Part shown: in pieces, positions 43,639 to 45,870 of the stretch
Numbering within the stretch: the stretch's first letter is position 1
Layout of the letters: each line of letters opens with the position of its first letter
Virus record (IMG/VR): IMGVR_UViG_3300028044_000003
Location: 1 to 64,000 of that record
From: a virus
DNA length: 64,000 bases
Reading direction: 5' to 3' (one strand)
The notes under the pieces: model-generated
The model's database searches: none
Told to the model about the DNA's origin: nothing
Seen by the model: the letters and a program-made list of their open reading frames with translations, nothing else
Position numbers and translations under genes: made by a program

Positions 43639-43831
43639 TTATTATTCTAAACCCTGATAGAAACCTATGTGATGAATATAGGAACGGATGTAGCTGTATG
43701 AGATATGCTATTATAAACCGTTGGGAGTTCTCAGCAAGTAACTAATTTAGTTATGTGACCCTAGTTAATGACAGATGAAAATCGTTTCCTTCGGGGATAG
43801 TTAACGGGTGCTAATATTTAAACAATTTAAT

Positions 43832-44203
43832 ATGATAGAAAAAGAATTTGTGCCACATCAAGAAAGTCTTGAACTCGAAGAAATTGGTTTTAATGAACCT
43901 TGTTTTGGATATTGGAAATCTAAAAACTGGCTAATCCAAGAAAAAACAAGAACTGATGGATATACACATGCTGACCAAGAATGTTTAGCACCAACATACT
44001 CACAAGCATTTAGATTTTTTAGAGAGAAGCATAACATATCAAGTTGGATATACAATAGTGATATGATTAATTTCTTCTACACCATATTACAAGGTGGAAG
44101 AATTGTTAAAGCAAATAATTCTTATGAATCCTACGAAGAAGCAGAACTTGAATGTCTTAAAAAATTAATTGAAATTGTAAAAGATGGTAACAAGAGTAGA
44201 TAG
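43832..44203 (+). CDS. Conserved phage protein
   Basis: EFVP...SLEL.E.GF.EPC ... APTYSQAFRFFREK ... YEEAELECL. Confidence 0.65.
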   Translation: MIEKEFVPHQESLELEEIGFNEPCFGYWKSKNWLIQEKTRTDGYTHADQECLAPTYSQAFRFFREKHNISSWIYNSDMINFFYTILQGGRIVKANNSYESYEEAELECLKKLIEIVKDGNKSR

Positions 44204-44709
44204 AAAGTCTATGGTTATAAGACCGTCAGGAAGAAGTACTGATTTTCTTACTCCCACAATAATTATGGGGTGTGGTTATCAGTGCTCTTACTGTTATTGT
44301 AAAAGATATAAAACAGAAGGTGTAGATATTGCTACTAATTTAGGAGATATACTTACTACAGTAGATCATCACGCTTGGTTTGCCGATGTAGAAAAACCTA
44401 ATCAAACTCATCCGAAATTTATAACTTACGATATAGGTTGTAATTCTGATATGGCTTTACACGCTAAACACTATGACTGGAAATACTTGTTTGATTTCTT
44501 CAAGAACCATCCTCGGGCTATGGGTTCATTTGCTACTAAATATGTGAATGAGAAACTGCTTGAATATAATCCGGATGGTAAGATTAGAATCAGATTTAGT
44601 CTGATGCCTCAATCTTATTGTGATTATTTAGAACCTAAAACTAGTTCTATAGAAGAAAGAATAAAAGCTATCGATAGGTTTATAGAAGCTGGTTATGATG
44701 TACACATAA

Positions 44710-45305
44710 ATTTTTCTCCTGTTTGTTTGAGCAAATGTTGGATTAATTACTTGTGAAAAATATGTTTCTGTAGTTCCAGTGATACTTCTAATATCAGTTA
44801 AACCTTGTTTTTCTAATTCTTCTATATGTTCAATTAATGATTCACCTAACTTTGTTTTATTTTCAATATTATCTTCATTTTCAATTCTTTCTTTAATGGA
44901 TTCAATAATTTTTTTCTCTTCGTTAATGTTTAATATATCATACTTTTTAGAATACTCACTTTGAGTTGAAATTATTCCTGTCGATAAGTATTGAATATCA
45001 TTTAAATTTATTGAGTCATTACTGCTTATTCTTTGTTTCCACCTTTCCAATGTTAAATGAATTTCACTTACTCTTCTTAAAATTTTTATTGTGTCAAAAT
45101 GTCCATTAAATTCTTGTAATATTTGACTAATTGCAAATCCTATAAATAATTTAGATAACAATTCTAAAATCATATTACTGTCACCAAAAAAATGTATTAA
45201 AATTGAAGATAAAATTGGTATCCAAACCAATGGTTTAGCTAAAATCTAAGGATAATATTTGTACTGTTTACAAACCCTTTCTTTAATTTCTTCTAATCGT
45301 CTCAC
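44710..45305 (-). pseudogene. Cassette membrane-protein gene, 5' part (internal TAG at 45246-45248); its 3' end lies at 45496-45546
   Basis: GTG 45305; VRRLEEIKERVCKQYKYYP*ILAKPLVW...FAQTNRRK. Confidence 0.65.
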
Positions 45306-45350
45306 AATCTTTTTTATTTTATTCGTTAATTTCTGTTGTCCTTTAAACTG

Positions 45351-45488
45351 ACCGCCAACGGTTCTTGTGTATGTGTCAGGTGGGGATTAGAAAGCACAAA
45401 ACTTTCAACACTCACCAAAGTTTATTAACATCCACAACCGTTCAATTTACCACCAAACCCCCACTTGCACATACACAATGTTGGCGGT
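45351..45488. repeat. attC-like imperfect palindrome (Bacteroidota cassette-type repeat)
   Basis: ACCGCCAAC..TTGTGTATGTG..AGGTGGGG / CCCCACTT.CACATACACAA.GTTGGCGGT; AAC/GTT core ends. Confidence 0.75.
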
Positions 45489-45870
45489 TCGGTTTTTATT
45501 TCTTCTTTTTATTCTGTCTTTCATTTTCTCTCATTTTTCTCCTGTTATCGTAACATACGGTTGGATTAAAAAATATGAAGAACTTTTTAACCAAGTTTCT
45601 GATATAGTAGGAAATAAAGATAAGATCAAAGCTGAAGTAATCTTCTTGACTCACAATGAAGGTAAACATGAATATAATCTTAGACATTCTTTACCGGGAG
45701 AACATCTTTTATGGAGACCGGAACTCCAGGAAGATAAAATATCACAGTACGGTGGTAAAAATATAAGGTATAAACACGACCTAAAAGCTCAGTATATCAA
45801 AGAGTGGACTGAATTACATGATAAGATTATACCCTGGAATACTATAAGATATATTTTTTAAAAAACTATT

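Follow-up and report, generated by a model that had tools for sequence, protein, structure and literature searches.

Integron cassettes excise as circles when IntI recombines one attC site with another. Such free cassette circles are short-lived, and their existence is usually deduced by PCR, in a handful of model integrons. During attG insertion, integrase cleavage of the folded attC linearises the cassette at that site (Loot et al., bioRxiv 10.1101/2022.09.11.507474). Phages, virulent ones included, carry attC-type sites and cassettes, and lateral transfer by this route has been proposed (Qi et al. 2023, PMC9892861). The sites reported in that study are classical attC sites, in CALINs or integrons, mostly from phages of Proteobacteria (Vibrio, E. 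coli, Shewanella); neither Bacteroid- nor Flavobacter- appears in its text, and it describes no permuted, microhomology-integrated cassette.

Here we consider an 823-bp insert in a phage gene, found in a window of 64,000 nt (the whole stretch of DNA that was analysed) from a virus genome of 111,530 bp. Like an integron cassette, the insert combines a promoterless-looking ORF with a long imperfect palindrome that follows it, is co-oriented with it and is bounded by AAC...GTT terminal boxes. The palindrome belongs to a site family that punctuates large arrays, as attC sites do, and the permuted order of the insert implies a unit-length circle of gene plus site. A free cassette circle would be recorded here, in a natural phage genome, by the arrangement of the pieces. 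The insert also ties the phage to a Bacteroidota hairpin-array system that is unlike textbook integrons.

An interrupted phage gene and its permuted insert

The features of the locus, in window coordinates, are as follows.

44184..44723, plus strand: SPL-like radical-SAM gene, N-terminal 180 codons (Pfam PF20903 SPL, E 2.4e-16, plus a Radical_SAM match; collinear with 80 related loci)
44710..44723, no strand assigned: left copy of the 14-bp crossover identity ATTTTTCTCCTGTT (exact repeat; present once in the empty site of the closest related locus, L002)
44724..45546, minus strand: 823-bp insert, one gene and one hairpin, circularly permuted, right 14-mer included (absent in 79 of 79 related loci spanning both halves)
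44724..45305, minus strand: cassette gene, codons 1-194, from a GTG start at 45305 to ...FAQTNRRK at the left junction (66-85% identical to the proteins P0002, P0003 and P0004)
45246..45248, minus strand: in-frame TAG at codon 20 (Trp in all homologues, YYPW; a single G-to-A change from TGG)
45344..45495, minus strand: attC-like imperfect hairpin, a palindrome of ~150 nt (fold z -5.1 as DNA, -4.3 as RNA; matched by the covariance model R1 described below)
45496..45532, minus strand: displaced 3' end of the cassette gene, (M)RENERQNKKKK plus stop (45498-45496), adjoining the hairpin (matches the tails of P0002, RREIERQNKKKK, and of P0003 and P0004)
45533..45546, no strand assigned: right copy of the 14-bp identity ATTTTTCTCCTGTT (its minus strand encodes NRRK(M) of the cassette gene)
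45547..45861, plus strand: SPL-like gene, C-terminal 104 codons plus stop (Pfam SPL profile positions 230-337; 95% identical to L002)

Both parts of the split phage gene match the Pfam spore-photoproduct-lyase/radical-SAM family. The N-terminal frame continues for 33 nt past the junction into the insert, to a stop at 44756, and the C-terminal part has no credible start codon of its own. Excision of the 823 bp joins ...HINFSPV to IVTYGW.... With the N-terminal part as query we gathered 80 related IMG/VR loci, 79 of which span both halves; in every one of these 79 the gene is uninterrupted, with zero gap at exactly the predicted codon. The closest of them, L002, carries a single copy of ATTTTTCTCCTGTT at an empty site, between flanks that are 90-93% identical in DNA sequence on both sides. 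A first-pass annotation of the window had proposed an 823-bp insert between direct repeats whose removal restores the SPL-like frame, and the exact 14-mers together with these loci bear this out. Between L002 and the two halves dN/dS is ~0.12-0.13, a value in which most of the divergence may predate the insertion and which therefore gives no verdict on the function of the split gene.

The closest locus also differs from the window upstream of the SPL-like gene. It lacks ~520 bp of the window (43653-44175), has 21 nt there instead, and is otherwise collinear. The missing segment holds most of a 131-aa ORF (43808-44203) situated just upstream of the SPL-like gene, and it constitutes a second accessory-gene indel beside the cassette insertion.

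The repeat ATTTTTCTCCTGTT has only two copies in the whole virus genome, 823 bp apart, and the insert itself is single-copy there. Databases list the product that spans the left junction in two alleles one residue apart (P0001 and P0005), carried by 7 and 5 contigs, respectively, of up to 113 kb and drawn from JGI, Logan, ENA and GEM. Because this junction product recurs as two alleles on 12 contigs from four sources, the insert is no assembly accident. The insertion has persisted in the phage lineage, in at least two alleles.

Read on the minus strand, the insert begins with the gene tail NRRK-MRENERQNKKKK* (45546 to 45496), continues with the hairpin (45495 to 45344) and ends with the main part of the gene, from GTG at 45305 to ...FAQTNRRK at 44724. 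The 14-mer is read in the same frame by both gene pieces; translation thus confirms the order and the shared frame given in the first-pass annotation. At the left junction the MRENERQNKKKK-stop is missing, and the frame reads on through antisense SPL to 44628; the lost ending lies at the right end of the insert, at 45532-45496, within the inserted DNA. When the insert ends are joined through one copy of the 14-mer, they yield a 209-codon ORF that is collinear with P0003 (210 aa), equals P0002 in length across the joint without an indel there, and is collinear with the intact homologues apart from the TAG where these have Trp. The annotation's view that circularisation would give one continuous gene plus one att-like site agrees with this ORF. 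It had also named, as a refuting condition, that the two pieces belong to different genes; this does not apply, as intact homologues have the two together in one ORF of equal length. The insert is one gene and one hairpin, no more and no less, in circularly permuted order, which is indirect evidence of a unit-length circle.

The cassette-gene family is very small. Its close proteins are P0002, P0003 and P0004 (66-85% identity), encoded on contigs of 1,664 nt (ENA), 4,898 nt (Logan) and 21,631 nt (JGI), respectively, and a profile search of 1.84 billion cluster representatives gave five matches, namely P0003 and the new members P0006-P0009. The intact homologues P0002-4 and P0006-8 carry the C-terminal tail NRR..RQNKKKK, and every full-length member of the family has a basic C-terminal tail, for example ...NRRERREIERQNKKKK. 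The 14-mer is native to this gene, in which it encodes the codons N-R-R-K-M at a place where homologues have NRRERRE or NRRTRRE, and it is native to the phage gene too, since the intact SPL gene of L002 has one copy. Being native to both partners, it cannot be a target-site duplication, and the donor must have been circular or tandem.

The in-frame TAG at codon 20 indicates that the cassette gene is probably dead, or that its translation restarts at TTG 45230 or at an ATG further on. In databases, the gene as called in this insertion begins at MILELL, downstream of the TAG; the first-pass annotation had overlooked this codon. Nothing in Pfam, PADLOC or PHROGs assigns a function to the gene. 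An AlphaFold model of the protein is all-helical with a mean pLDDT of 61, too poor for a fold search, and the best ESM Atlas score, 0.81, was uninformative. No relative carrying the intact cassette gene was found by a related-locus search of viral, metagenome and genome contigs, and no homologue by tblastn against phage and plasmid records or by a six-frame HMM search of 401 genomes of the order to which the reference genome described below belongs.

The hairpin and the arrays of a Bacteroidota genome

On the gene-sense strand the hairpin reads CCGCCAAC (45487 to 45480) ... CTGAC ... GTTGGCGG (45359 to 45352), and its fold, whether computed for DNA or for RNA, is much stronger than that of shuffled controls. 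It is fitted closely between the gene pieces: the stop at 45498-45496 adjoins the hairpin start at 45495, and from the hairpin end at 45344 the next start, at 45305, is 38 nt on. An Rfam scan of the region returned no relevant match. Pattern scans for the hairpin gave only GC-rich chance matches, devoid of inner complementarity or an R1 match, in viral contigs, and the same held in genome contigs among the matches listed.

The terminal-box pattern singled out one genome, G353, among 401 sampled from the GTDB phylum to which a Chlorobia genome belongs. SusD is a hallmark of Bacteroidota, and G353, a member of the Bacteroidota, has 27 SusD genes. It contains at least 60 hairpins of ~139 nt, covering ~100 kb in total over several contigs, each co-oriented with the flanking ORFs, at a spacing of ~0.93-4.7 kb and in the same gene-relative orientation as in the window. 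The arrays are located on contigs C9 (279-313 kb), C13-C18 and C20-C22 (loci L227-L232). An ORF stop falls within ~30 nt of the hairpin at 10 of 33 sites, and the next ORF start within ~41 nt at 7 of 32.

Hairpins within one array can be near-identical over ~139 nt (alignment A3, 84% mean column identity). Across 35 sites in a model-fitted alignment, 93.5% of cells are paired, as against 80% in shuffled and 30-43% in slid controls, and 25 of 35 pairs vary on both sides, as compensatory change would require. The main stem (helix 2) is 98.5% paired, with 13 of its 16 pairs changed on both sides.

The covariance model R1 was built from 11 hairpins of G353 only, with the window hairpin left out. 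On the minus strand, which is the sense strand of the gene, it matches the window hairpin with 48.7 bits (E 4.8e-13) over its full length (positions 1-155 of 155). G353 having been chosen through the window's terminal boxes, the independence of this test is confined to the structure and the inner ~120 nt. This score lies within the range of diverged sites in G353's own arrays. The next best match in the 64 kb reaches 8.4 bits, the opposite strand of the hairpin does not reach E<=10, and over the whole 111.5-kb phage R1 found no second hairpin site. These results support the earlier assignment of the palindrome to an attC-like site of a Bacteroidota system: judged by sequence and predicted fold, it is a full-length, correctly oriented member of the hairpin family of the G353 arrays. 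When R1 was run over 151 Bacteroidota genomes, with 20 candidates scored in each and hence low sensitivity, the site type was found in G353 only.

The homologues of the cassette gene suggest a similar arrangement elsewhere. The N-terminal read-through of P0002, P0006 and P0008 encodes the 3' arm of the hairpin (LAVSLKK, MLAAS, GQFKK), so that, going by these read-through ORFs, the hairpin would lie just upstream in intact copies too. The read-through peptide IKHIKTMFY is identical upstream of the starts of P0002 and P0008. These two proteins align only distantly and fall into different 50%-identity clusters, and the shared peptide thus implies much stronger conservation of the hairpin arm than of the cargo, as arrays with homogenised sites would show.

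The only IntI-like recombinase of G353 is an IntI/Xer-like protein of 380 aa (L235:11596-12738). It scores 203 bits on the integron-integrase model TIGR02249, for which the cut-off is 265, in two stretches that skip model positions 182-240. Contig C6 ends 235 nt away from its gene, so that adjacency to the arrays is not visible; repeat arrays break assemblies.

A different repeat occurs in G791, from the family of G353. It is AT-rich, ~120-147 nt long, bounded by CGCCAAC...GTTGGCG and present 23 times (control 1) on several contigs, for example at C7:43208-43354. This repeat may represent another variant of the hairpin site, or else an intergenic repeat with no relation to it.

The route of entry and its alternatives

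Recombination with the phage took place within the 3' end of the cassette gene, at a distance of 38-51 nt from the hairpin. Since the hairpin is intact and internal to the insert, the crossover did not take place at the hairpin. We compared the circle with the insert-free phage genome and found exact identities of 14 nt three times, of 15 nt twice and of 18 nt once. Four ungapped circle-phage pairings score at least as high as the real site, whose extended score ranks fifth. The 14-bp homology is thus at chance level for these AT-rich sequences and not the best available. This agrees with the first-pass proposal of recombination at a chance homology rather than at an att site.

A second shared word, the 10-mer GTTGGATTAA, which the annotation had not reported, occurs at 44737 and 45560 in the same register as the 14-mer. 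It lies 13 nt beyond it, and over this stretch the 3' coding end of the cassette matches the phage target at 27 of 37 positions. We considered this word as a sign of a non-random target and dropped the idea after counting the real alternatives in the genome.

The insert must have entered as a circle or a tandem copy, crossing over at a 14-base chance identity and not at its own hairpin. In our judgement the likely explanation is that a complete Bacteroidota array-type cassette was captured by way of a circle, most plausibly one excised by a recombinase, and of a 14-bp crossover. The insert would then be a whole cassette, made up of a 209-codon gene and one hairpin of ~150 nt, of the type kept in long integron-like Bacteroidota arrays. 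In an infected Bacteroidota cell, the cassette would have been present as an 823-bp circle, most likely excised at two flanking hairpins by the IntI/Xer-like recombinase of the array. The structure of the product shows that this circle then recombined with phage DNA by one crossover or template switch within the 14-bp identity, which is shared by the 3' end of the cassette gene (codons NRRKM) and, in antisense, by the phage SPL-like gene. The event opened the circle inside its own gene and left the 14-mer in two copies; it also broke the phage gene in two and detached the last 12 codons of the cassette gene. This interpretation, which the first-pass annotation had put forward in outline, is supported as a whole; the origin of the circle by a recombinase is a part that we infer.

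The 111.5-kb phage genome encodes no tyrosine recombinase (no gene of the PF00589 Phage_integrase family). The mode of entry is compatible with a rare crossover at short homology, or with a template switch going once round the circle, whose product survived because its target was dispensable. With neither a recombinase nor another such site in the phage, the cassette is a stranded passenger. Its gene lies antisense to the surrounding phage genes, truncated and with a nonsense codon.

The explanation that survives best beside capture of a recombinase-made circle keeps the same microhomology step and has the circular or tandem intermediate arise without a site-specific recombinase, through homologous recombination of neighbouring hairpins, tandem duplication or a concatemer. 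The ~139-nt hairpins, where near-identical, share more than enough sequence for a RecA-type event to excise a circle of one gene and one hybrid hairpin, a tandem cassette duplicate would lead to the same product as a circle, and no recombinase can be placed next to an array. However, the co-oriented ORF-plus-hairpin layout of the arrays and their structure-conserving covariation resemble recombinase-run cassette systems, and G353 does encode an IntI/Xer-like recombinase, at a contig end. We consider a recombinase-free origin unlikely.

Dedicated site-specific integration is less probable still. Here the 14-mer and the in-register GTTGGATTAA would form a secondary att core of some recombinase, and the target would owe nothing to chance. 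GTT is the triplet cleaved by integron integrases, and the 14-mer ends in GTT; the 27 of 37 matching positions noted above would also suit an att core. Integrase-driven insertion outside att sites, at attG sites with the consensus GWT, is documented (bioRxiv 10.1101/2022.09.11.507474). However, the known attG insertions cross over in attC, and the attC-like hairpin is intact and internal here. The four circle-phage pairings that score as well or better, and the longer identities of 15 and 18 nt that went unused, also speak against a specific core, as do the 79 of 79 related loci with nothing at the site and a phage that lacks a recombinase.

Two further accounts have next to no probability. 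A transposon or MITE-like element with a 14-bp target-site duplication would explain a flanking direct repeat that is single in the empty site, but the 14-mer is in frame within the element's own gene and its removal breaks the frame relative to homologues, there are neither terminal inverted repeats nor a transposase (Pfam, PHROGs and PADLOC searches were empty), and a permuted gene is not an effect of transposition. An assembly chimera, or a self-splicing intron or homing element, might be suggested by the single locus and by a structured region within an interrupted gene, but the junction ORF stands on 12 contigs from independent assemblies in two alleles, Rfam gives no intron or ribozyme match at E<=10, the ORF is antisense to the host gene, and the boundary nucleotides of group I and group II introns do not fit.

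Capture of a free circle has consequences beyond this phage. We lean slightly towards seeing in the insert a naturally preserved trace of a free cassette circle that came from an integron-like Bacteroidota gene-capture system, with ~139-nt hairpins and an IntI/Xer-like recombinase without the IntI hallmark; the papers searched contained no description of such a system. If this reading is true, such circles do form in cells, virulent-type phages without a recombinase can take them up by microhomology, and cassette genes have a host-to-phage route that bypasses att sites. The capture would have used short homology within a coding region and neither an integrase nor an att site, and surveys of isolated cassettes in the style of IntegronFinder would not read such an insert as circle-mediated integration. 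The case is a single event, with a cargo gene that is probably dead and an interrupted phage gene that is evidently dispensable.

Relation to integrons and to cassettes in phages

Several properties set the locus apart from classical integrons. Unlike classical attC sites, whose boxes follow RYYYAAC/GTTRRRY, the site has boxes CGCCAAC/GTTGGCG that agree with this consensus at 5 of 7 positions, with the AAC/GTT triplets kept. A length of ~136-139 nt for sites of the window type is a further difference from integron cassettes. The candidate recombinase of G353, unlike the integrase of a classical integron, does not reach the integron-integrase cut-off and leaves out region 182-240 of the model. 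Within the G353 arrays themselves the hairpins punctuate long series of genes; in contrast, the window has one cassette, in a phage without a recombinase, which came in through a coding region and not through a hairpin.

The insert resembles SALINs and attG insertions in being a single cassette with a single attC-like site, inside an ordinary gene and in a replicon with no integrase, although the term SALIN is defined for classical attC and the likeness here refers to one R1 site and to a 111.5-kb genome without a tyrosine recombinase. In contrast to insertion at attI, attC or attG in integrons, the crossover is not in the R' box of an attC, and the junctions lie within an ORF. An attG insertion would have opened the cassette at its site, whereas the site in the window is intact and internal and the break falls in the ORF at the 14-bp identity, which points to integrase-independent short-homology recombination or template switching. 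Thus, the case differs from the published integron parts of phages in its site consensus, its recombinase type and its Bacteroidota setting, and above all in its permuted, att-independent integration.
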